Below, one piece after another: positions 3,775 through 59,810 of a stretch of DNA of 64,000 bases. The stretch lies in contig BOLA01000001.1 in NCBI GenBank assembly GCA_016861265.1, positions 598,229 through 662,228 of the forward strand, read 5' to 3'. The translations under genes and the position numbers were made by a program. Under the pieces are notes generated by a model. It had not been told where the DNA came from, ran no database searches, and saw only the letters and a program-made list of their open reading frames with translations. Source of the stretch: Patescibacteria group bacterium (GTDB taxonomy: Bacteria > Patescibacteriota > Dojkabacteria > J137). The stretch's first letter is position 1. Each line of letters opens with the position of its first letter.

Positions 3775-3848
3775 TCGGAGTGGCGGGGCTCGAACCCACA
3801 ACCCCACGCTCCCAAAGCGTGTATTCTAGCCAATTGAACTACACTCCG
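3775..3848 (-). tRNA. tRNA-Pro (anticodon TGG)
   Basis: The reverse complement folds as a cloverleaf: acceptor CGGAGTG/CACTCCG, D-stem GTTC/GAAT, anticodon stem CACGC/GCGTG with loop TTTGGGA (anticodon UGG, G37), T-stem GTGGG/CCCGC with loop TTCGAGC, discriminator A. No CCA is encoded. Confidence 0.85.
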
Positions 3849-4864: not shown

Positions 4865-6583
4865 TTACTCTTGAGATCTTAGCGAGTTTAAAATTTCTTC
4901 AGAATCAGCACCTTCTACGATAATTATATCGCCCGATTTTATAAGGGTTCTGGTAGTAAATAGCAATTCGTTAACATTCCTAGATTTTAGGCTAAGGATA
5001 TCAAGGTAGCTATGTGCAAGCAAAGTGTAAAGTAAGGGATCTGTAGTTACAACTATAGAAACTTTCTGTTTTAATTTTTCAGTTAATCTAGCATAGGATT
5101 TTCTTTTTAATTTCCCCAATTCGCTAACTCCATCGGTTAGCAATATTATTCGTCCATGTTTAAACTTTCTCTTAATATTGTTTGCGTAATCTACAGCAGC
5201 CAGAACTCCTTTTAGGTTGCTGTCTGGGTTACCTGTGGATATTAATAGAGTATGATCATCACCTTCTAGGGTGTATATATTAGTGAATTTATCGGATAAT
5301 TTGCCCACTTTTTCTCTAACTGTTTTTTCGTCAATACCTGTTCGTTTGGCAGCCAGTATTGCCGGTACTAGCTGATGTACTAGGCTTAGTCTGTGTATTG
5401 GTGTTGAGTATTCACTGATCTTGTCTTTGGATTTAAACATGAACTTATAACCTTCAACCGATCTTTTGTAGATCTCTATAAAAAATAGTTCATTAAGTTT
5501 GCTAGATTTTTTATCCAAAAACGAGAAACCAATTTTTTCTCCTGGAAATTTATTCAAATAATGTAGTATATATTTGTTATCAATTGGTGCGATTACGCTT
5601 CCATTGTGATTAGTTCCTTTTATAAGCTCTAATCTTGCTTCTATATATTCCTGTTTATTTTTGAATGAACCATAGTGCTGAACGTCAATGTCTGTGATAA
5701 TTGAAATATCCGGACTAATAATCCTGCAAATGCTTTCTACTTCGCCTTTCTTGAAAGGTTCAATTTCAACTAATAATATTTGGGTGCCAGCTGTAATTTG
5801 GGTAGTTATATCGTAACTTAGTTCTTCTATTGTAGTATAAACATCACCTGTTTTAACAATGGAGTAGTCGTCCTTCAGTAACTTGAATAAGAGTTCCTTA
5901 GTTACTGTTTTCCCTATGCTACCGGTAATGGCAATGACAATAATGTTGTTCCTATATCGAGATAACTTGTCATTCAATTGGTGTACCGCAACTTTATTTC
6001 TAAACCATCCAATAGGGCTGGTAATTAAGATTATTAAAGCTGTGATTATTGGAGAAGCGATATCTAAAAACAAAGCGATTATTGCTGAAAGACCTAGGTA
6101 TACATATACATCGTAGATGGTATACATATTGGCATTGCTTACCCCGGGTAATATCAAGTTTTCTCTTTGTAGAGAAGCAAACGGTAGCGACACAATTATT
6201 ATTAGAAAGCTTACTAGTATACTTAATAATGTTAATACAACTGTATTTCTGGTGTTAATTCTTATGGATTCTGATTTACCGGAAAATACTTTTTCTAGAA
6301 GCATAAAGATTTCCACGGCCCAAATTGTGTATGCAATTAAGACTCCTATACTTGAAGTGTAAACAGAAACAACTAGCGTACAAGTTAAACTGAATACAAT
6401 ATATTTAAGTAGCGTGAGTAGAAAATCCCTGTTGTTAGGAAGATGGTCCCACCTAATAAAATTATAAAAACGCTCAACTCTGTACTGCTTTTGCTGCCAT
6501 AAGTGTAGATTCCAAAGTACATTCTTGAATAGAATCACTACTGGAGGAAGCCAAAATAGGACTACTAAGACTAAAAATTCCAT
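4865..6583 (-). CDS. Mur ligase family protein (MurF-like central and C-terminal domains) fused to an N-terminal polytopic membrane domain
   Basis: About 190 N-terminal residues contain 4-5 hydrophobic helices. They are followed by the Mur ligase P-loop IVIAITGSIGKTVTKELL, a MurF-like ISIITDIDVQH motif and the C-terminal ISTGNPDSNLKGVLAAV region. Confidence 0.65.
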   Translation of the reverse strand: MEFLVLVVLFWLPPVVILFKNVLWNLHLWQQKQYRVERFYNFIRWDHLPNNRDFLLTLLKYIVFSLTCTLVVSVYTSSIGVLIAYTIWAVEIFMLLEKVFSGKSESIRINTRNTVVLTLLSILVSFLIIIVSLPFASLQRENLILPGVSNANMYTIYDVYVYLGLSAIIALFLDIASPIITALIILITSPIGWFRNKVAVHQLNDKLSRYRNNIIVIAITGSIGKTVTKELLFKLLKDDYSIVKTGDVYTTIEELSYDITTQITAGTQILLVEIEPFKKGEVESICRIISPDISIITDIDVQHYGSFKNKQEYIEARLELIKGTNHNGSVIAPIDNKYILHYLNKFPGEKIGFSFLDKKSSKLNELFFIEIYKRSVEGYKFMFKSKDKISEYSTPIHRLSLVHQLVPAILAAKRTGIDEKTVREKVGKLSDKFTNIYTLEGDDHTLLISTGNPDSNLKGVLAAVDYANNIKRKFKHGRIILLTDGVSELGKLKRKSYARLTEKLKQKVSIVVTTDPLLYTLLAHSYLDILSLKSRNVNELLFTTRTLIKSGDIIIVEGADSEEILNSLRSQE

Positions 6584-31335: not shown

Positions 31336-34300
31336 ATGAAAAGTGTATCAATAATAGTTACTATAGTAATGAACTCACCCCTACTAAGTTATAAAAAAAG
31401 AAAAAAACGAAATCGAAATATTATTCTTTCTAGTATAGTAATCACTTTTCTTTCTATAGCTATTTTCTCAAGATTATTCGCGGCCACAAGTATAAGTTGG
31501 AATTTTGATGTCGCAGAAGATTATTTATCCTCAGATAACAACAAGGTTCAAATTAATAACGGAGATGTAACTTTAAAACAAGTCGTTACAAACCTATCTG
31601 AAGATACAGATATCGAATTTAATGATGGAGAACATATTAATACAATGTCTTCAAATAATAAATTGACATTAGGGGGAACTAAATCTCCCGTTCCCTCAAA
31701 TTCGTCTGGACTTGTTGCGCAATATAGGGCTGAGAACAATTGGGATAATGAAAAGGGTACCGGTAGTGTATCTGTTGTGGGATCACCAACCTTTGTGGCA
31801 GGGCAGATAGGTACAGGGGTAAGTTTTGACGGTACTGATGATCAGGCAATCGTTAATTCTAATTTTGGTCTTACCACCACAAATATTTCTGTTGAGTTAT
31901 GGGTTAACCTAGATTCAATCTCAGAAAACGGATCATTTGTGAAAATTGGTGGAACGGGAAATGGTGGAATTGCTGTCGGGGTAGGTTCAACTACATTCTT
32001 AGATGGTGGTAATAATCTGATTCTTTTATATGAGGGAGTTCGATGGATTAATACAAATGTAAGGATTGGAACAGGCTGGCACCATATTGTAATGGTGGTT
32101 AATAGCTCCGGAGTTCCTTCCGCATATATAGATGGACGTCTGATTGGAACCTTTGCCGGTACTAATGCAATTGCCCCTGTAAACAACAATGTTTATATTG
32201 GAGGTTATTTCGCTTCAGGTGCTAGGTTTGCTGATGCAATCATAGACGAAGTATCGATATATAATATTGATTTAAGTGGGTCGCAGATATTTCAAAATTA
32301 CCAGAAAGGAGCCGCACTCATAGGAGAGTATACTTCTAGTGTAATTGATTCCAATGCAACGGATGGAGTGCCGTGGGATTCCTTAAATTGGATACCTAGT
32401 GGCCCCTATGGAGTTGAACTCCCAAATAATATGCAAACTGAAACAACTTACCCAACCGGTAATGTAGATATGAGTGGAAATCTTGCTCTTTGGCATTTCA
32501 ATAATAACGGACAAGATAGTAGTGGTAATAATAGAAATGGGACTTTGGCAGGCAACGCTCAATATGTAACCACTTCTAAATTTGGTAGTCACTCAGCTTC
32601 TTTCGACGGAGCTGGAGATTATGTTTCTTTAGGCAATAATGCATTAGGTAATTTAGGGAATTTTACACTTTCTGCATGGATTAAAACTCCAGACACAAAT
32701 ACCTCCAGATATATTCTCACTGAATTCAGACCAAGCTGCGGTGATGCAATTTGGTATATTGATGCAAATGGTATTCCTACGTATATAGATGGTGCAGTAA
32801 CATTAAATAGTGGAGGTACGAGTGTAGAGGATAATAAATGGCATCATATTGTTTACGTATATGGTGGAACCTATGGGAAGCATTACATCGATGGAGTTCC
32901 TCAGCCAAACTCCACCGGAGCAATTTGGAGAAGCACTTGCAGTGCTGCTGACGTAAGAATAGGAATTGATGCGCAAGGAGCAGGATCATTTTTAGGTAAT
33001 ATTGATGAATTAGCAGTATTCAATAGGGCATTAACCCAAGAGGAAGTATCAGCGATATATAACCGTGGTGGGCAAACAGTTAAATACCAAGTGAGAAGCT
33101 GCAACGATAACCTATGCGATGGGGAAAATTTTATAGGTCCTGACGGATCACCAAATACTTACTACTCAATAGAAAAAAATCAGGTTACTTCAAATCCATC
33201 CATAGAATTCTCTAATTTAAACAACAACAGATATTTTCAATATAAAGTAACATTAGAGGCCCATACACAAAATGCGCTTCCGACTATAGGTTCAATAAAT
33301 TTATCTTACGAAAGTTATGCAACTGATAATCCGTATGTAAACCCTGTTTCCTCCATAGACTTGGGCGGCATTCCAAAAACAATTTCTAAATTTTGTGAAG
33401 GCACTCTTAATGGTTCAAATGAATGTACTACAACAAGTGTAAAGCCATTGGGTACGGAAATTCATTATCAAATTTGTAATGATTTAGTCTCTAACTGCGA
33501 TATAAACAATACATGGAAGTACTGGGACGGTGATAGTTGGGAAAACGCAGATAATACAGAATTCAATACTGCCTCTGACGTTTCAAGTAATATCGAGCAG
33601 TTCATTCCTTCTTCAAGATATTTATCGTTTAAATCATTCTTAAGTTCAGGAGGCAATTCTACACCAACACTAAAAGATGTTTCGGTCTCCGCTACTTTAG
33701 ATGGAATCCCACCAGTAACGAATGCATCAAATATTCATTCAAATGGTTACAACAGTAATGACTGGATAAGAAATAAACCCTTAATAGAATGGAGTGAAGG
33801 AGAAGATGATCAAGAAGGGGTAGGTCTTCTGGGTTACTGTGTGGCACTAGACGAATCTAACCTGGGAAGTAGTCAGAATTTAAACCCTTCAACAAGCGCT
33901 GGAGTTTTACAGAGTCTAGATGATGGAGTTTCTCAACAATATTGTCCATACATTGTTACGGGTACAAGCATTAATTTGAATTCAATTCAGGGGCTGAATC
34001 TAGTTACAAATAAACAATATAATTTTTCAATTAAGGCGGTTGATATTTCCGGCAATATTTGGAATGGAAGCAGCGAGGATTATCAAGACTTATTTACATT
34101 CCGATATGATGGTACTGCACCTAATAATCCTGCTTTTATTTCAATGCCAAGTAATTTTATACAAAGTAAGGATGTAACAATAACCTGGCCAACGGAAGGA
34201 GCAAATGGTGCAAGCGATGTAGGTTCGGGATTGGCCGGATTACAATATAGGATAGGGCAGAATGGTGTATGGTATGGAGATCTTCACAATGGCAATCAAG

Positions 34301-36312
34301 ATTTAACAGATTTACTTGTTAATGATGGTACATATACAACAAACCCGGAAGTAGATTACGAGAATTTAATAGACGGGTCGAACATAATTTACTTTAGAAC
34401 AGTGGATAATGCAGGAAACTATTCGATCTCTAATGTAACTGGTGTGTTAAAGATAAATACAACTGCCCCTAACCAGGTTCAGAATTTGCAAGTGAATCCA
34501 AGCGATAATATTGTTAATTCTTATTCCTTTAATTGGAGTGTTCCCGATACATTCATAGGTGAAGCCAGTGGATTAACCTATTGCTATACCGTAAATACAT
34601 TGCCAAACGGGAATAATTGCACATATACAGCAGCCGGAATAACAACTATTCCAAGCGATGCATTTGCAACTCAGCCTGGAACAAACAACTTTTATGTAGT
34701 GGCAAAAGATGAAGCGGGGAATATAAATTACGATACATATTCAAGCATCCAGTTTACGTATTCAGGGGAAGCTCCTGGAATACCATTGAATGTTGATGTT
34801 GCAGACATATCTACTAAAGAGACCCAAGACTGGAAGTTAGCAGTAACCTGGGCCGTACCTACAAATGCCGGAGCAGGAGTTAGTAGTTATAAAGTTTACA
34901 GATCATCAGTAGAAAATGCGGCTTGTAATTCAAACATGAATAACTTTAGTCAGGTAAGTAGTGTAGCAGGAACATCGTTTATCGATACAGGCTTAGAGCA
35001 GCAAGACTATTACTATTGTGTAAAAGCATGTGACAGTGCGAATAATTGTTCCGCTGTATCAAGTACTAAAGTAAAATATCCAACAGGTAAATATACTTCG
35101 CCGGCGAACCTAGTATCGGGTCCAGAACTGAATGCGGTAACAACAAAGAAGGCAGTAATTAGTTGGGTTACTGATAGAAGAAGTGATTCAAAAATACAGA
35201 TAGGGCTATCTAGTAACGACTACTTTGAGGCAGAAAGTGCAGTTTCAGCACAGGTAACATCACATACGGTGACCCTTGATAATCTAGCTGCAGGAACAAC
35301 ATATTATTATCGAGCTAAGTGGACTGACGAGGATGGCAACACCGGAATAAGTGAAGAGAAATCTTTCACTACAAACCCACCTCCAAGTATTGTTTCCACA
35401 AATGTGACTAATATTGGAATTAATAGCGCTTTACTTCAATTAAGAGTGAGTGGAGCAACAAAAGCAACAATACTATACGGCATTGAAAGTAATTTTAACC
35501 TAGTAAAGGAGGTCTTAACTTCTTTCACAGAGAGTAGTTATACAATTCCACTAGAAGATCTAAATGATAATTCTAGATATACATATAGAATAAGATTGTC
35601 AGATATCGAAGGCGCAGAATACTTAAATCTAGAGACTAATGAATTCACTACCTTACCAAGGCCTACGGTAAGTAATATTGAAATTGAGGAAATTAAAAAT
35701 GTTGCACAGCCTACTGTGAAGGTAAACTGGACCTCAAATACTGAGATTTCCTCCATAGTTACTTTCTATCCATCAAACTCAGAAGATCAGGCTAGAGATT
35801 CAATTAACTTAGATTTAGTAAAAGAGCATCAATTAGAATTATCCGGATTAATGGCAAACACTAGATATGTTTTGATTGTAAAAGGTATTGATAAATTCGG
35901 AAACGAAGCAATTTCTTCACCTCAGTTGTTTAATACTGCTACAGATACAAGACCGCCAAGAATATTTAATGTAAAGGTTGAAGCGGTAAATCCCGACAGC
36001 AGTGAAAATACATCACAAATAATTGTAAGTTGGGAAACTGACGAGTTATCTACCAGTCAAGTAGAGTACGGAGAAGGTACTAACGGAGGCTATTCTCAAT
36101 CCACCCAAATAGACAAAGGTTTAGGTTACAAGCACGTTGTAATAATTACGAATCTAAAGCCTGCAAGCGTGTACCATCTAAAGGCAATTAGTGAGGATAA
36201 TAGTAAGAATACGAGCGAGACGGGGAATATAGTAACAATAACTCCAAAGCAGCAAGAGAAGGCCTTTGACATTGTACTTAAGGGCTTAGGAGATATTTTT
36301 AGTTTCCTGTAA
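31336..36312 (+). CDS. giant (1658 aa) secreted surface protein with two LamG/concanavalin-A-like lectin domains and multiple fibronectin-III / purple-acid-phosphatase-N-like beta-sandwich repeats
   Basis: Signal peptide with a basic n-region (KKRKKRNRN) and an LFA|AT cleavage-like site. LamG_3-like blocks (DGTDDQAIVNS...ISVELWVNLD...GWHHIVMVVN; FDGAGDYVSLGNNALGNLGNFTLSAWIK...KWHHIVYVYGG). FN3/PAP-N-like blocks (WVTDRRSDSKIQIGL...TTYYYRAKWTDEDGN). A possible alternative start lies 11 codons downstream. Confidence 0.7.
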   Translation: MKSVSIIVTIVMNSPLLSYKKRKKRNRNIILSSIVITFLSIAIFSRLFAATSISWNFDVAEDYLSSDNNKVQINNGDVTLKQVVTNLSEDTDIEFNDGEHINTMSSNNKLTLGGTKSPVPSNSSGLVAQYRAENNWDNEKGTGSVSVVGSPTFVAGQIGTGVSFDGTDDQAIVNSNFGLTTTNISVELWVNLDSISENGSFVKIGGTGNGGIAVGVGSTTFLDGGNNLILLYEGVRWINTNVRIGTGWHHIVMVVNSSGVPSAYIDGRLIGTFAGTNAIAPVNNNVYIGGYFASGARFADAIIDEVSIYNIDLSGSQIFQNYQKGAALIGEYTSSVIDSNATDGVPWDSLNWIPSGPYGVELPNNMQTETTYPTGNVDMSGNLALWHFNNNGQDSSGNNRNGTLAGNAQYVTTSKFGSHSASFDGAGDYVSLGNNALGNLGNFTLSAWIKTPDTNTSRYILTEFRPSCGDAIWYIDANGIPTYIDGAVTLNSGGTSVEDNKWHHIVYVYGGTYGKHYIDGVPQPNSTGAIWRSTCSAADVRIGIDAQGAGSFLGNIDELAVFNRALTQEEVSAIYNRGGQTVKYQVRSCNDNLCDGENFIGPDGSPNTYYSIEKNQVTSNPSIEFSNLNNNRYFQYKVTLEAHTQNALPTIGSINLSYESYATDNPYVNPVSSIDLGGIPKTISKFCEGTLNGSNECTTTSVKPLGTEIHYQICNDLVSNCDINNTWKYWDGDSWENADNTEFNTASDVSSNIEQFIPSSRYLSFKSFLSSGGNSTPTLKDVSVSATLDGIPPVTNASNIHSNGYNSNDWIRNKPLIEWSEGEDDQEGVGLLGYCVALDESNLGSSQNLNPSTSAGVLQSLDDGVSQQYCPYIVTGTSINLNSIQGLNLVTNKQYNFSIKAVDISGNIWNGSSEDYQDLFTFRYDGTAPNNPAFISMPSNFIQSKDVTITWPTEGANGASDVGSGLAGLQYRIGQNGVWYGDLHNGNQDLTDLLVNDGTYTTNPEVDYENLIDGSNIIYFRTVDNAGNYSISNVTGVLKINTTAPNQVQNLQVNPSDNIVNSYSFNWSVPDTFIGEASGLTYCYTVNTLPNGNNCTYTAAGITTIPSDAFATQPGTNNFYVVAKDEAGNINYDTYSSIQFTYSGEAPGIPLNVDVADISTKETQDWKLAVTWAVPTNAGAGVSSYKVYRSSVENAACNSNMNNFSQVSSVAGTSFIDTGLEQQDYYYCVKACDSANNCSAVSSTKVKYPTGKYTSPANLVSGPELNAVTTKKAVISWVTDRRSDSKIQIGLSSNDYFEAESAVSAQVTSHTVTLDNLAAGTTYYYRAKWTDEDGNTGISEEKSFTTNPPPSIVSTNVTNIGINSALLQLRVSGATKATILYGIESNFNLVKEVLTSFTESSYTIPLEDLNDNSRYTYRIRLSDIEGAEYLNLETNEFTTLPRPTVSNIEIEEIKNVAQPTVKVNWTSNTEISSIVTFYPSNSEDQARDSINLDLVKEHQLELSGLMANTRYVLIVKGIDKFGNEAISSPQLFNTATDTRPPRIFNVKVEAVNPDSSENTSQIIVSWETDELSTSQVEYGEGTNGGYSQSTQIDKGLGYKHVVIITNLKPASVYHLKAISEDNSKNTSETGNIVTITPKQQEKAFDIVLKGLGDIFSFL

Positions 36313-38863: not shown

Positions 38864-38935
38864 CTCCGATTGCTGGATTCGAACCAGCGACCAATCGCTT
38901 AACAGGCGAGCGCTCTACCGCTGAGCTAAATCGGA
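38864..38935 (-). tRNA. tRNA-Asn (anticodon GTT)
   Basis: The reverse complement folds as a cloverleaf: acceptor TCCGATT/AATCGGA, D-stem GCTC/GAGC, anticodon loop CTGTTAA (GUU), T-stem GCTGG/CCAGC with loop TTCGAAT, discriminator G. No CCA encoded. Confidence 0.85.
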
Positions 38936-39009: not shown

Positions 39010-39354
39010 TTAATCGATGGACTTTTGTGCAGCTTTTTTGAAAGCCTTTAAAAGTTCAGTGGAGTTTTCTTTTAAAATATCTAATTGTTTAAGTATTTCC
39101 CTACTTGCTTTAGACACATCATCAACACGTTGTTTATATTCTTTCGATTTACTGTATTTATTCAAATTCTCATCAAGTTCTTGATAGTCTTCTTCTAGTT
39201 CACGAACAAATGCGTTTGCCTTTTTTGACAGATCCTCTGCTGTTGATCTTACCTTTTTCCTATTTTGTTCATCGGAAAGCATTGCAGCAATTCCTGCCGA
39301 TGCAGCTGCAAGGGTGCCTAAGATTACTGTCGCTTTTAGAATGTTTTTACTCAT
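39010..39354 (-). CDS. secreted or membrane-anchored coiled-coil protein (YtxH-like?)
   Basis: N-terminal signal/anchor (ILKATVILGTLAAASAGIAAM) then charged helical repeats. Confidence 0.45.
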   Translation of the reverse strand: MSKNILKATVILGTLAAASAGIAAMLSDEQNRKKVRSTAEDLSKKANAFVRELEEDYQELDENLNKYSKSKEYKQRVDDVSKASREILKQLDILKENSTELLKAFKKAAQKSID

Positions 39355-39429
39355 AATAATATTTTACGCAGTAATTTTTGTAAGCACAACAATAATAATG
39401 GGAATTTAATAAAATATTTGACAAGAGTA

Positions 39430-39477
39430 GGTATACCACGTATACCATAATAGTACTATTATTTAACTTGGTATACC
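39430..39477 (+). promoter_or_regulatory. putative LexA operators: a perfect palindrome GGTATAC-CAC-GTATACC (39430-39446) overlapping the lexA promoter, plus a GGTATACC half/second site abutting the start codon (39470-39477)
   Basis: Inverted repeat seen directly. TTGACA at 39417-39422 and a TATACC -10 lie inside the palindrome. This location is typical of autoregulated lexA. Confidence 0.5.
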
Positions 39478-40113
39478 ATGTTAACTCAAAAACAACAAAA
39501 AGTGCTGGAATCAATACAATTCTATATCAGAGAAAATGACCAGCCACCAACATTATCAGAACTAGGTGATATGTTAGGAATAAAGACAAAAAGAGGTGTC
39601 GTAAAACATCTCGATGCTTTAGAAAAGAAAGGCTTCTTATATAGAACCAGCAAGCCAAGAGGGATTGTTCTGACCAGCGGGGATTCAAGTCAAATGGATA
39701 CCTTAAGTATACCTGTTTTGGGGTATGCAAACGCAGGTAGACCTCTGGTATTTGCAGAAGAAGATATTATTGGTTCTATAAAAATAGATAGAGATTTAAT
39801 TAAAGATAGTAGAAAAACCTTTGCATTAGTAGTAAAGGGCGATTCAATGAATTTAAGACAGGTGAACAGAGTTCCAATCTTAGATAGGAATTATGTGGTT
39901 GTGGAAAAAGATAGCTCGTATTCAGATGGTGATGTTGTCCTCGCTGTAGTCGATAATGCTGCAACCATTAAGACTTTCAAAAGAAGTCAGAATTCTGTGA
40001 TCCTTTATCCGGAAAGTAACAATCCGGTACACACACCAATTTATCTAAAGGATAATGTAGCCGGATTTATAAATGGTAAGGTCATCGCAGTGCTAGAGAA
40101 CCCGGTTTTTTAA
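39478..40113 (+). CDS. lexA: LexA repressor (S24 peptidase family)
   Basis: N-terminal winged HTH (PPTLSELGDMLGIKTKRGVVKHLDALEKKGFL), cleavage-site region (VLGYANAG), Ser box (VKGDSMN) and Lys box (ATIKTFKR). Confidence 0.85.
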   Translation: MLTQKQQKVLESIQFYIRENDQPPTLSELGDMLGIKTKRGVVKHLDALEKKGFLYRTSKPRGIVLTSGDSSQMDTLSIPVLGYANAGRPLVFAEEDIIGSIKIDRDLIKDSRKTFALVVKGDSMNLRQVNRVPILDRNYVVVEKDSSYSDGDVVLAVVDNAATIKTFKRSQNSVILYPESNNPVHTPIYLKDNVAGFINGKVIAVLENPVF

Positions 40114-43476: not shown

Positions 43477-43928
43477 GGGGATGCTTTTTAGACAGTAAAC
43501 CTGCATATTAAAAATCAAGTCGGAATTTAGATTATTTGTTCCGTAAAAATAAGTAATCACCAGTAATGGTAAATGACTATAAACGTCAATCAAATTAAAA
43601 CAGCTGTATCAAACGCAGTTGCTAATGTAAAGGCAGCTTTTGCTCCTCAATACAACCTAGCATTTGCTTAATTTGAGCAGTCGTTAATCGAAAAAAAGAG
43701 TAGATTAACCGTTTTTTAATTTCTCTTCCAGTGGAAATTACTAAACGACACTTAGCTGGAACGCAAAATTTATTCTTAGTTTACGAATAGATTCCAAGTT
43801 TAGGTAGACTAGAGTATTTGGTGTTTTGCTAGTTTTAAGCCTTTTACTCTTAAACAAAAACTTGTCTAAGCTTGTAAGAACTTTTAATGTGAGATTTGTT
43901 GGACAGGGATTATCCCTCATCTCCACCA
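43477..43928 (+). ncRNA. ssrA: transfer-messenger RNA (tmRNA, SsrA), about 450 nt
   Basis: 5' GGGGATG pairs with 3' CATCTCC-A-CCA to give a 7-bp acceptor stem with the G3:U70 alanine identity pair and an encoded CCA. An internal tag-like reading frame (...GCA GTT GCT AAT GTA AAG GCA GCT TTT GCT CCT CAA TAC AAC CTA GCA TTT GCT TAA) would give (AV)ANVKAAFAPQYNLAFA*. A hairpin terminator follows at 43929-43960. No protein-coding signal beyond a spurious antisense ORF. Confidence 0.55.
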
Positions 43929-56304: not shown

Positions 56305-56685
56305 ATGAATAAAAAAAAGTTGATCTCAATAATTGTCTTAGCCCAGAGTGTTTTAATGGCATTGCCAGTAGCAGCTCAAGGACTGACTAATGTTAGTCAG
56401 AATTATGCAATTCCTAACCCTACAAGATACAGTAGTCTGGAAGACATAATTAATGCATTGACTTCGCTAATTAGACCTGTCTTTATTATTACATTTGGTG
56501 CAATGATACTTTATGGAGGATGGGTTAGATTAACATCTCAAGGTAATCCGGATAAAGTTAAGTCAAGCTCGCAAATCATAGTTGCAGCAATTGTAGGTTT
56601 TGCAATTGCAGTGTTTGCACCTACAATTGTTGACTTTGCGGGTAAATTGCTAGGTATTCAAGGTGGATTAATACAGAATCAATAA
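56305..56685 (+). CDS. pilin-like protein paralog 1 (VirB2/TrbC-like topology: signal peptide, two hydrophobic helices joined by a short polar loop)
   Basis: Signal (LISIIVLAQSVLMALPVAAQG). Helix-1 (VFIITFGAMILYGGWVRL), loop (TSQGNPDKVKSSSQ), helix-2 (IIVAAIVGFAIAVFAPTIV). Confidence 0.55.
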   Translation: MNKKKLISIIVLAQSVLMALPVAAQGLTNVSQNYAIPNPTRYSSLEDIINALTSLIRPVFIITFGAMILYGGWVRLTSQGNPDKVKSSSQIIVAAIVGFAIAVFAPTIVDFAGKLLGIQGGLIQNQ

Positions 56686-56686
56686 T

Positions 56687-57298
56687 ATGAAACTAAAAGC
56701 TTTATTATTCATAGTAATTACAATAATCCTTAGTTCGGGTATTAAGTTATCGGCACAGTCTACAGACTGTATAGCCCCATATTTTATCCCTGATGATTGT
56801 AGTGTGCCTTATGTACCTGGTAAATCAGGGGGTTATACTGCAGATTTAAATTGTCAGATCGTTCGAATTACTAAACCTGGAACCGAGGAGGCTAAATGTT
56901 GTCCCAATATTTGTGTAAATGAAAATGGTGATAGGGTAAGTGCCCAGCTTCCGTCCGAAATTACGCAGACCGAGGTATTTGGAACTACTATTAGAATTAA
57001 TCCGGATAATTCAGGGACGATTATAAATATACTGTTTACAACAATATTGGGTCTTGTTTCTGTTTACGCAATTGTGAGAGGTATTTATGTTACTGGAGTA
57101 AAAAGACCAATGGCTATTACACCCGACCAAATCGCGGAAATTAATAAAGAACTTACAAATTTAATAATAGGTGTAGTTATTTGCTGGGGCTTTATAATCT
57201 TAATTCAAGTAGTCGCCAACCTATTAGGAGTAGGTCAGTTAAATAATCTAGATATTTCCGGCGGAGAATCTGGAGGAACAATTATTACTATTAAATAA
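56687..57298 (+). CDS. pilin-like protein paralog 2 with an N-terminal Cys-rich extracytoplasmic module
   Basis: Signal, 7 Cys in the first 80 mature residues, then helix-1 / KRPMAITPDQIAEINKELTN loop / helix-2. Confidence 0.5.
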   Translation: MKLKALLFIVITIILSSGIKLSAQSTDCIAPYFIPDDCSVPYVPGKSGGYTADLNCQIVRITKPGTEEAKCCPNICVNENGDRVSAQLPSEITQTEVFGTTIRINPDNSGTIINILFTTILGLVSVYAIVRGIYVTGVKRPMAITPDQIAEINKELTNLIIGVVICWGFIILIQVVANLLGVGQLNNLDISGGESGGTIITIK

Positions 57299-57858
57299 TG
57301 AAGACTTTATTGCTAACAATAATATTAAGCATATTCTTCTTTGCTCCTGTGTATGCACAAGAAAATTCAGGCGGATTAGCAAATCAGACGGTCACATGCG
57401 TTAACTGTACAATAGATAACAATATTGGGCTAGAGGAAATTAGAGTTCCTGTTTTTGCTAGCTTTATTGATTTCAATACTGAAAATGCGAGCATATTTAG
57501 CTGGGTATCGTTCATCGGAGCTTTAGCTACCGTAGGATTGGTTATTTTCTGGATTTTTCTTCTGGTTAAAGCTGGTGTAAGAGGATTGCAGAGCCAGGGC
57601 AACGCAGATACATTGGCTGAGGCATTTAAACAGGTTCAATCGGTACTTATTGGAGCTGCAATCTCACTGTTCTTCCCCCTAGTACTAAGTATTATAGGTG
57701 TATTCTTTGGAATTGGCACTATCTTTAGTTGGCCTAAAATGTTTCAGTTTTGCGATGAGTCGTCTGGTGTTCAATTTTATTATCAGGCTCTGTTAGCTGA
57801 CGATGTAAAAGGAGATAAGTCAGCCGCAGAGGCTAAATGTAACCCAATAGGAGAATAA
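57298..57858 (+). CDS. pilin-like protein paralog 3 with a Cys-containing C-terminal tail
   Basis: Signal. Helix-1 (VGLVIFWIFLLVKAGVRGL), loop (QSQGNADTLAEAFKQ), helix-2, then a C-terminal tail with 2 Cys. Confidence 0.5.
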   Translation: MKTLLLTIILSIFFFAPVYAQENSGGLANQTVTCVNCTIDNNIGLEEIRVPVFASFIDFNTENASIFSWVSFIGALATVGLVIFWIFLLVKAGVRGLQSQGNADTLAEAFKQVQSVLIGAAISLFFPLVLSIIGVFFGIGTIFSWPKMFQFCDESSGVQFYYQALLADDVKGDKSAAEAKCNPIGE

Positions 57859-57859
57859 T

Positions 57860-58291
57860 ATGAAAAAATTAATATTGCTAACTTTTATAATCGCTTTTTC
57901 GGTATTGCCTTTCAGCATTAAGGCTGCTACTGCTTCAGATGTCTTGCCATGCGATCAGTACGATACATCGGCCTTTGATGCGTGTGGGGATGTTAACGGA
58001 CAAGTTACTGATCTTATAAAGTTCGCTTTGGCAGCAGCTTTCGGAGCAATTATATTATATGGCATTTTCTTGATAATTAAGGCTGCACTTACTATAATTA
58101 GGAGTAATGGTGATCCGGGCCAAGTAGAGGCCGGTACAAATATTATAAGAGGTGTTTATATTGGCATAGGAATCATCTTTATAGGAATAGTAGGGCTTAT
58201 TATTGTTATTGCATTCTTTGGTGCAGGTGGTATATTGAATACAGCAGTAAATACACCAGGTAATACTGTAATACCAATAATTACAAATTAA
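57860..58291 (+). CDS. pilin-like protein paralog 4
   Basis: Signal. Helix-1 (AIILYGIFLIIKAALTIIRS), loop (NGDPGQVEAGTN), helix-2 ending AFFGAGG. Confidence 0.55.
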   Translation: MKKLILLTFIIAFSVLPFSIKAATASDVLPCDQYDTSAFDACGDVNGQVTDLIKFALAAAFGAIILYGIFLIIKAALTIIRSNGDPGQVEAGTNIIRGVYIGIGIIFIGIVGLIIVIAFFGAGGILNTAVNTPGNTVIPIITN

Positions 58292-58317
58292 ATTATTTAT
58301 TTTATTAAAATACTCTT

Positions 58318-58806
58318 ATGTTTAGAAATAAGAAACTTGCAGGAATCATGGTAGGAGCATTTTTATTAGTTGCACCATTGGTTTCTCCATTGTTAACAGT
58401 TCAAGCTCAATCAAGAAACTTGATTTGTACTGTTTTCCCATTTATTAATAGTGTTGGAGCATTTGGAATCAGCTCATTGTGCGGTGATGTTAATGCAACA
58501 AGTACATCTGATACAATCAAAAGTACTTTTAACTTAATTGTGTCTTTAATATTTGTAGCAATAATCATTTTCTCAATCTACGTGATTATTAGAGCTGCAA
58601 TTAAATACATTAGATCAGAAGGAGATCCAGCAAAAATTGAAGAGGCTCAAAAGGCTATCAAGTCGGTGTTTATCGGTATTGCTGCATTATTTGTAGGCTT
58701 AATCGGTATTATCATTATTATTGCATTCTTTGGTGCAGGTGGTGCATTAACTACAAATCAGGTTAATAACCAGGTAAACCCACTATTGAATTCAATCTTG
58801 AATTAA
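58318..58806 (+). CDS. pilin-like protein paralog 5 (closest paralog of no. 4; shares IRSxGDP...AFFGAGG)
   Basis: Signal. Helix-1, loop (IRSEGDPAKIEEAQKAIKS), helix-2 ending AFFGAGGAL. Confidence 0.55.
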   Translation: MFRNKKLAGIMVGAFLLVAPLVSPLLTVQAQSRNLICTVFPFINSVGAFGISSLCGDVNATSTSDTIKSTFNLIVSLIFVAIIIFSIYVIIRAAIKYIRSEGDPAKIEEAQKAIKSVFIGIAALFVGLIGIIIIIAFFGAGGALTTNQVNNQVNPLLNSILN

Positions 58807-58824
58807 GTTAATTAGAATTTTATA

Positions 58825-58851
58825 AAGCCCAGGCCAAGCCTGGGCTTTTCA
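58825..58851 (+). terminator. rho-independent terminator (AAAGCCCAGGC-CAA-GCCTGGGCTTT) closing the five-gene pilin-like operon
   Basis: Perfect 11-bp stem plus a T-rich tail. Confidence 0.7.
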
Positions 58852-58916
58852 TTTCTTCTTGATTAGCCTTAACCTTTAATCTATAGTGTAATAAGTATTA
58901 ATATTAATAATTTCTC

Positions 58917-59810
58917 ATGGGAAAGAATAAAAAACTCCTTTATCTGCTACTCATACTTAATCTGATTTTTGGTCACGTAGCGATTGTTAGTGCACAATTA
59001 CAGTCTTTCGATTTTTCAGGGAATAATGCTGAAAGTTATCAATGTTTTGATAAGGAAACAGGAGAGAACCTAACAGATGAAGATACTGAGCCAAGTGGTG
59101 TTAAATTAAATGTGCAAGGTCCTGATGATTTTGGTAATTTCTATTGTTGTGGGGGCACTAATTCGGGTTATACACCAGTAGGGTTAGATTGCGCTGCGGG
59201 TCAAACAAAGATCATTGCTCAACTAAAACCACCTGCGCTACAGCAAATAGAAGTTTGGTTCGTAAGAATTTTATATGCAATTTGGGGACTTGTAGCATCT
59301 CTATCTTTTCTATTTCTAGTAAAACTTGGTTATGAATATATTATCTCAAGAGGAGATCCTACCAAGATTACTGAAGTTAGAAAGAAGATTGTGAATTACA
59401 TTATTGGTTTTGCACTGGTTTTCCTGGCTGTTCCTATTTTGACTACAGTATTCCGTCTTTTAGGAATAAATACAAATGCGCAATGTTACAACGTAAATAT
59501 GCCAGGGTTTCAATTCTTTTATAGCTCTCTATGTACCGATCCTAAAGGGGTAATTGCAGCAAAATTTGCCTCCAACCCATGTACGGCATTTAATGACGGA
59601 TCAGATCCTGAAGGCATAATCTGTAAAGGAACTGGCTATGAAGGTGTTACGAGAGGTTGTGGAGTTATTAGGGGTATTTATAATATTTCATTAACTTGCG
59701 ATGTTCAAACAGGTGACACTGCAGCAACATGGTGCAAAACCAGAGAACTTACTTTGCCGCTGTTGGGACTCGTTTACTGTGATTCATCCTGTAACCCTAC
59801 AAGGTGTTAA
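58917..59810 (+). CDS. pilin-like protein paralog 6 with Cys-rich N- and C-terminal extracytoplasmic modules
   Basis: Signal. Cys-rich N-module, helix-1 (ILYAIWGLVASLSFLFLVKLGY), loop (ISRGDPTKITEVRKK), helix-2, and a C-terminal domain with about 12 Cys. Confidence 0.5.
   Translation: MGKNKKLLYLLLILNLIFGHVAIVSAQLQSFDFSGNNAESYQCFDKETGENLTDEDTEPSGVKLNVQGPDDFGNFYCCGGTNSGYTPVGLDCAAGQTKIIAQLKPPALQQIEVWFVRILYAIWGLVASLSFLFLVKLGYEYIISRGDPTKITEVRKKIVNYIIGFALVFLAVPILTTVFRLLGINTNAQCYNVNMPGFQFFYSSLCTDPKGVIAAKFASNPCTAFNDGSDPEGIICKGTGYEGVTRGCGVIRGIYNISLTCDVQTGDTAATWCKTRELTLPLLGLVYCDSSCNPTRC

Follow-up and report, generated by a model that had tools for sequence, protein, structure and literature searches.

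What sequence does LexA recognise in the Dojkabacteria, and how would it act at its own promoter? This question is raised by a lexA gene within a 64-kb stretch of DNA (the window, meaning the whole stretch analysed), the promoter of which carries two copies of the hexamer GTATAC separated by three nucleotides. The host belongs to the Dojkabacteria (WS6, Patescibacteria); the nearest public lexA loci come from metagenome-assembled Dojkabacteria, some of them mislabelled as Saccharibacteria. The promoter lies between two divergent genes:

39478 to 40113, forward strand: lexA, encoding 211 amino acids, with the Pfam domains LexA_DNA_bind (PF01726, 3.8e-14) and Peptidase_S24 (PF00717, 4e-19)
39010 to 39354, reverse strand: a gene encoding 114 amino acids with no significant Pfam family, sharing a 123-bp intergenic region with lexA

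The LexA protein has a winged-helix DNA-binding domain followed by an S24 self-cleaving domain, and retains the cleavage motifs, i.e. the Ala-Gly site (ANAG), the GDSM serine and a conserved lysine. A protein search returned >100 Dojkabacteria LexA proteins. In an alignment of 21 of these (A1), the ANAG, GDSM and lysine columns are invariant or nearly so, as is most of the recognition-helix region (TKRGVxxHLxALExKG). The lexA product is thus predicted to be a normal, cleavable LexA, with a DNA-reading surface that appears conserved throughout the group. An identical protein (P0001) is found on nine contigs, the longest of 1.11 Mb, and the promoter is identical in all of them. The divergent pairing of lexA with a gene of the 114-amino acid type recurs in L001, L004, L006, L009, L054 and L057–L060, which makes this gene a possible co-regulated neighbour.

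Three RNA genes were located in the window:

43477 to 43928, forward strand: tmRNA gene
38864 to 38935, reverse strand: tRNA gene
3775 to 3848, reverse strand: tRNA gene

The start listed for a yidC-like open reading frame (TTG at 43826) overlaps the tmRNA gene, and the true start is therefore probably further downstream. The window also contains a run of five genes at 56305 to 59807, four of which encode type IV secretion pilin-like domains (PF18895), and, upstream of this run at 31336 to 36312, a gene for a 1658-amino acid surface protein with lectin and fibronectin domains.

A paired GTATAC element in the lexA promoter

The region from 39417 to 39480 reads aTTGACAagagtaGGTATACcacGTATACCataatagtactattatttaacttGGTATACCATG and contains the following elements:

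39418 to 39423, forward strand: TTGACA, the likely -35 hexamer of lexA, read directly and invariant in all eight aligned promoters of the same clade (clade A)
39430 to 39446, no strand: candidate main operator GGTATAC-CAC-GTATACC (GGTATACCACGTATACC), two GTATAC units 9 bp apart, the proposed site of a LexA dimer
39441 to 39448, forward strand: candidate -10 elements, placed by position, within or overlapping the second operator arm
39447 to 39462, no strand: perfect 16-bp palindrome ATAATAGTACTATTAT with the centre AGTACT, identified by sequence symmetry
39470 to 39477, no strand: GTATACC-type unit GGTATACC, adjoining the lexA ATG (39478)

The first-pass annotation had described the main element as a perfect 17-bp palindrome. 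Its position and its perfectly inverted 7-nt arms were borne out; the word 'perfect' was not, because the CAC spacer is asymmetric and only 14 of the 17 positions are self-complementary. GTATAC reads the same on both strands, so the site can equally be taken as GTATACC repeated directly every 9 bp; with this hexamer as the repeated unit, the direct and inverted readings are indistinguishable.

A further GTATACC arm directly before the start codon, also reported at the first pass, is present as GGTATACC. It is flanked at the same 9-bp period by the weaker sequences TTTAAC (39462–39467) and GTTAAC (39480–39485), and lies within a 22-bp near-palindrome (TTAACTTGGTATACCATGTTAA, 39463–39484) that runs across the start codon. 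We propose that this unit and its weak neighbours may form an auxiliary operator. The window genome seems to start translation essentially without Shine-Dalgarno motifs, a Shine-Dalgarno-like sequence being found ≤20 nt upstream of only 3 of 42 gene starts. Between the main operator and the unit at the ATG, the palindrome ATAATAGTACTATTAT takes the place of a third full unit found in L003 and L056 (AAGTATACT, with the units there 13 bp apart in L003), and it is therefore probably a decayed auxiliary unit.

The core promoter was less clear. The earlier description of a TTGACA promoter stands as far as the -35 hexamer is concerned; the -10 element is uncertain, and a consensus scan called neither a forward-strand sigma-70 promoter nor a canonical -10 at lexA. 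The complement of TTGACA, TTGTCA, was called as the -35 of the divergent gene. The candidates for the -10 of lexA are TATACC at 39441–39446, with a 17-nt spacer and lacking the final T, and TACCAT at 39443–39448, with a 19-nt spacer. In distant relatives, and in the umuD promoters described below, the -10 is a TATACT inside a GTATAC unit. The main element thus sits in the promoter of lexA itself, between TTGACA and the ATG, and it covers the only candidates for a -10.

A chance origin of the lexA-promoter 17-mer is excluded. With up to one mismatch it occurs once in the window and was never found in 100 shuffled sequences. The unit GGTATACC occurs twice in the 64 kb (0.38 expected), both times in the lexA promoter, and the only three intergenic copies of GTATAC in the window are all in this promoter. 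With up to three mismatches there was no excess of the 17-mer in the window (3 observed, 1.6 expected), and the other matches to the paired motif at this threshold were all in coding sequence or in the tmRNA gene. A cluster of three GTATAC copies within 125 bp (6098–6222) lies inside a Mur-ligase gene and was judged to be chance. Within the lexA coding sequence itself there is a copy GGATAC-cttaa-GTATACC (39696–39713, encoding ..MDTLSIPV..) that is kept in L001 and L054, and in more distant lexA genes GGTATACC is also found where G-I-P is encoded; these in-gene copies are probably a coding coincidence, the alternative being an internal operator.

We also considered whether the palindromes might be an RNA hairpin that hides the start codon, a cruciform, a restriction-modification target or an accident. 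The predicted RNA fold of 39425–39500 (-16.4 kcal/mol, z = -2.6) and the near-palindrome across the ATG would suit the first of these, and GTATAC is a known type II restriction site. Nonetheless, the main palindrome is probably not transcribed, since it lies between the -35 and the -10, and in the relatives its arms are conserved as sequence rather than by compensatory change. Nor is GTATAC avoided or in excess in the 64 kb (14 observed, 11.1 expected), as would matter for a restriction target. Neither structure nor restriction fits the recurrence of the motif at promoter-specific positions of umuD and uvrA (below). Taken together, we find explanations of this kind extremely improbable.

Conservation of the element at lexA in relatives

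To follow the element through related genomes, we aligned eight orthologous lexA promoters (alignment A2: the window, L001–L004 and L054–L056; LexA identity 66–100%). Three blocks are invariant: TTGACA, GTATACC and GT.TACCAT, the last of which includes the second -10 candidate, TACCAT. Of 18 Dojkabacteria lexA promoters, eight keep the exact GTATAC-N3-GTATAC pair with varying flanks and spacer; within the alignment, the middle of the spacer (CAC, CTC, CAT or CAA) varies, as does all DNA further upstream. The pattern reads as the classical footprint of a protein-binding site. The pair keeps its place in the promoter in lexA orthologues with as little as 54% protein identity, the value for L008 (51% GC), where it reads GGTATAC-AGG-GTATACT.

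GTATAC units are present in 17 of 18 Dojkabacteria lexA promoters. The exception, L007 (51% LexA identity), has instead a non-palindromic direct repeat, GGTGTAGT-G-GGTGTAGT (L007:2940–2975), which occupies the position of the GTATAC pair and shares its 9-bp period; a GGTACAC unit follows further downstream. By its position and period, this repeat may be a direct-repeat derivative of the GTATAC motif.

More distant lexA promoters carry more units. In L005, L006, L009 and L057–L061 (~50% LexA identity), R-GTATAC-Y units number three to five per promoter and keep a common arrangement: one before TTGCAG, one directly after it, TGGTATACT at the expected -10, and one beside the ATG. This last unit is found in nearly all of the more distant Dojkabacteria lexA promoters. 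In the AT-rich L062–L064 (24% GC), the unit is AT-extended, either TATATAC-A-GTATATA or, in L063 and L064, GTATATAC-TCA-GTATATAT; the latter form favours TATAC-N3-GTATA as the putative contacted core.

The spacing of the units varies across the phylum, which corrects the fixed arrangement assumed at first. It is 9 bp in the clade of the window and 11 bp at uvrA; in lexA promoters of more distant relatives it is 13–14, 15 or 20–25 bp. Such variability would be unusual for a dimer with fixed geometry, and it counts against reading the element as a LexA box.

In other Patescibacteria, the lexA promoters also have palindromes between the -35 and the -10, but these are of unrelated sequence. L043 and L046 (labelled Peribacteria/Gracilibacteria) have GGTGAG-N4-6-CTCACC at this place, apparently another type of LexA box, and the WWE3-like L027 and L031 have a long palindrome, GTCTACCTATAC...GTATAGTAGAC. 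Because the palindromes of these other groups differ, the GTATAC form is specific to Dojkabacteria-like LexA proteins. We also observed a motif, GTCTACCTAT(A/G)C, that is common to the lexA promoters of L027 and L031 and to the region upstream of uvrA in L134 (L134:9860–9900), a locus with no GTATAC there; a neighbouring lineage may use it as its SOS box.

The motif at other DNA-damage promoters

The window has no other DNA-damage gene together with its promoter, so the regulon was examined in relatives. (The first open reading frame of the window, at 90 to 758, belongs to a UvrD/PcrA-type helicase gene of which only the 3' end is included; the promoter, which may be another SOS target, falls just beyond the window.) The 1,114,243-bp contig that carries this LexA yielded no UvrA or UmuC cluster member, and tblastn with E. 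coli RecA detected recA only in non-Dojkabacteria loci. The starting point was L056, where, 8.5 kb from lexA, a unit (GGTATACT) lies directly before the -10 (TGGTATAAT) of a gene for UvrA (product beginning ..IKIRGARTHNLKNINV). This UvrA and the adjoining UmuC were used as queries to obtain further Dojkabacteria loci.

At uvrA, a GTATACC unit lies on the core promoter in 8 of 11 loci, in one of two positions:

L056, L135, L136 and L150: unit just before the -10
L140 to L143: unit ~24 nt upstream of TATAAT, at the -35 position

The uvrA promoters of L134, L138 and L139 have no GTATAC unit. The assemblies that contain L135 and L140 also contain the lexA loci L003 and L004, and L056 has lexA and uvrA on a single contig. 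At umuD-umuC, the exact 17-bp motif GGTATAC-AAG/ATA-GTATACC occurs in three of five loci (L141, L142 and L143), just past a -10, TATACT, that lies within a unit itself; it is degenerate in L140, and L144 has no unit at umuD. There were no units at the radA, ssb and mfd-like promoters in L134–L143. Hits at nrd genes were rejected: that at L005:1914 is coding sequence of the NrdD C-terminus (..CEVYSRVVGY..), and those upstream of nrdD in L058, L059 and L060 encode the end (..FASVYK..) of the preceding gene, giving no evidence of nrd regulation.

When all hexamers were counted upstream of umuD and uvrA and compared with 319 other upstream regions from the same loci, GTATAC was the most enriched, with 11 of the 16 regions containing it and 8 of the 319 others (Fisher p = 2e-12), a value which, like the counts given here, overstates the evidence because orthologous promoters are not independent. 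Several of the eight background cases in fact fall in the coding region of the gene before. Across 412 kb of Dojkabacteria DNA there are 11 exact pairs at 9-bp spacing, always in a lexA or umuD promoter, and 15 of the 150 loci fetched (1.24 Mb) have such a pair, again solely in these two promoters. The three genes lexA, umuD and uvrA lie at distinct loci, and the nearby intergenic DNA is otherwise not conserved. The expectation set out in the first-pass annotation, that the motif should appear upstream of other DNA-damage genes, was borne out in related Dojkabacteria by the 17-mer at umuDC, the units at uvrA and the enrichment; and this recurrence, with the conservation at lexA, supports its reading of a LexA box particular to the lineage.

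Could the units be promoter elements, i.e. variants of the -10 TATAAT or of the extended -10 TGnTATAAT, rather than a repressor site? TATACT is found 16–19 nt from TTGCAG or TTGAAA in distant lexA and umuD promoters, often as TGGTATACT, and the -10 of uvrA (GGTATAAT) is one base from a unit, as such a role would predict. Yet units are also found in the spacer, downstream of the -10 and beside the ATG, with three to five per promoter; the flanking G and C are invariant and have no role in a -10 box; and a general promoter element would be widespread, not confined to 8 of 319 other upstream regions. The two roles are in any case compatible, as an operator may overlap the -10. We consider promoter elements very improbable as the explanation.

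Alternatively, another regulator of the response to DNA damage or stress might control lexA, umuDC and uvrA through these sites. We assigned the site to LexA on sequence grounds, variable spacing of self-complementary units is atypical of LexA boxes, and non-LexA SOS regulators occur in other phyla (PMC8565304). Against this, the genomes encode a canonical, cleavable LexA, which makes a further regulator unnecessary, and no other regulator gene is linked to the sites. Furthermore, all through the group the motif stays with the lexA promoter, its sequence changing as LexA diverges (L007 and L062–L064), and lexA, umuDC and uvrA form the classical core set of LexA targets (PMC8565304). We regard a different regulator as improbable, and LexA as the protein that would read these sites.

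Three observations on the umuD region stand apart from this. In L141 (9024–9404), L142 (8826–9215) and L143 (8899–9279), a conserved gene of 126–129 amino acids with no Pfam family is divergent from umuD; sharing the operator-bearing intergenic region with umuD, it is a candidate additional SOS gene. After the operator, umuD has a leader of ~70–100 nt (L141:9541–9619, L142:9338–9408 and L143:9416–9484) that contains a stem, in L141 GCTTCG...CGAAGC followed by T's; L140 has no such leader, and its ATG is 7 nt after the -10. No Rfam family matched the lexA or umuD leader regions.

A proposed LexA operator and its relation to known boxes

In our judgement, the element is in all likelihood the SOS box (LexA operator) of this Dojkabacteria lineage, acting by promoter occlusion. 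A LexA dimer would bind the GTATAC pair with its 9-bp spacing (GGTATAC-N3-GTATACC, with TATAC-N3-GTATA as the core) and make weaker contacts with the isolated unit at the start codon. As the main site fills the space from TTGACA to the start of transcription and overlaps the only candidates for a -10, bound LexA would exclude RNA polymerase from the lexA promoter, which would amount to negative autoregulation. Upon DNA damage, RecA filaments would trigger self-cleavage of LexA at the conserved Ala-Gly bond, and this would release lexA along with other genes that bear the units (umuDC and uvrA in the relatives). LexA binding, repression, the dependence on RecA and the bases contacted are what we infer from the promoter and protein sequences.

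The single units, and the spacings of 11, 13–15 and 20–25 bp, suggest that the hexamer itself may be the module. In the broadest form of this idea, Dojkabacteria LexA would read a self-complementary GTATAC module singly, in 9-bp pairs or in arrays with spacings of 11–25 bp, rather than a dyad of fixed spacing. We put this forward tentatively and think it unlikely. Were it true, such a module, direct and inverted repeat at once, would naturally link the palindromic to the direct-repeat LexA boxes, and the GGTGTAGT-G-GGTGTAGT of L007 would be a direct-repeat derivative caught in mid-change.

Compared to known LexA boxes, the proposed operator is alike in role and distinct in sequence. Its repeat symmetry, over 17 bp, falls within the roughly 11–20 bp of a LexA operator. 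As noted at the first pass, it differs from the boxes of E. coli and the Firmicutes: neither CTGT-N8-ACAG nor GAAC-N4-GTTC is present in 39355–39477. In E. coli, too, a dyad in the lexA promoter lies over the core promoter, LexA has the same two domains and cleavage motifs, and the targets are of the same kinds (lexA, umuDC and uvrA); however, the E. coli box spans 16 bp against 17 bp for GTATAC-N3-GTATAC, and the isolated extra units are a feature of the Dojkabacteria. The box of Firmicutes and Actinobacteria (CGAAC-N4-GTTCG) is similar in role and promoter position and unrelated in sequence. The closest likeness, by inspection only, is to the box of Bdellovibrio bacteriovorus, TTAC-N3-GTAA (PMC8565304), a short dyad whose TAC/GTA arms likewise stand 3 nt apart; in its inner part, ATAC-N3-GTAT, the Dojkabacteria site differs from this box by one base per arm. 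Unlike the Bdellovibrio box, the Dojkabacteria arms are longer (GGTATAC) and self-complementary and the units also occur singly or at other spacings; the two lineages are unrelated. The direct-repeat boxes of Alphaproteobacteria (GTTC-N7-GTTC), Acidobacteria and Balneolaeota resemble the 9-bp direct-repeat reading of the site and the repeat of L007, and differ in sequence.

None of the LexA motifs named in PMC8565304 and PMC7739468 matches the GTATAC site, and full-text searches that paired LexA with Patescibacteria, Dojkabacteria or GTATAC turned up no statement of the motif, the 2017 study of the Patescibacteria SOS response aside. A passage of PMC7739468 attributes a direct-repeat LexA motif to Patescibacteria, citing Sanchez-Osuna et al. 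2017. As far as that passage goes, the motif could be the GTATAC element or a relative of it; if the 2017 study describes this element, the finding would be already known. The advance made here is incremental, elements of this kind being well known, and the 2017 study may already contain part of the result.

LexA is a textbook case of a conserved repressor with a binding motif that has changed many times, 17 motifs having been counted (PMC8565304). With each new motif, sequence by itself is enough to read out the DNA-damage regulon of a lineage. How LexA boxes pass between palindromes and direct repeats is a question on which the self-complementary, variably spaced unit also has a bearing. The Dojkabacteria are uncultured, have small genomes and lack experimental genetics; for them, a defined SOS box would allow damage-inducible repair and mutagenesis genes to be predicted, here lexA, umuDC and uvrA.
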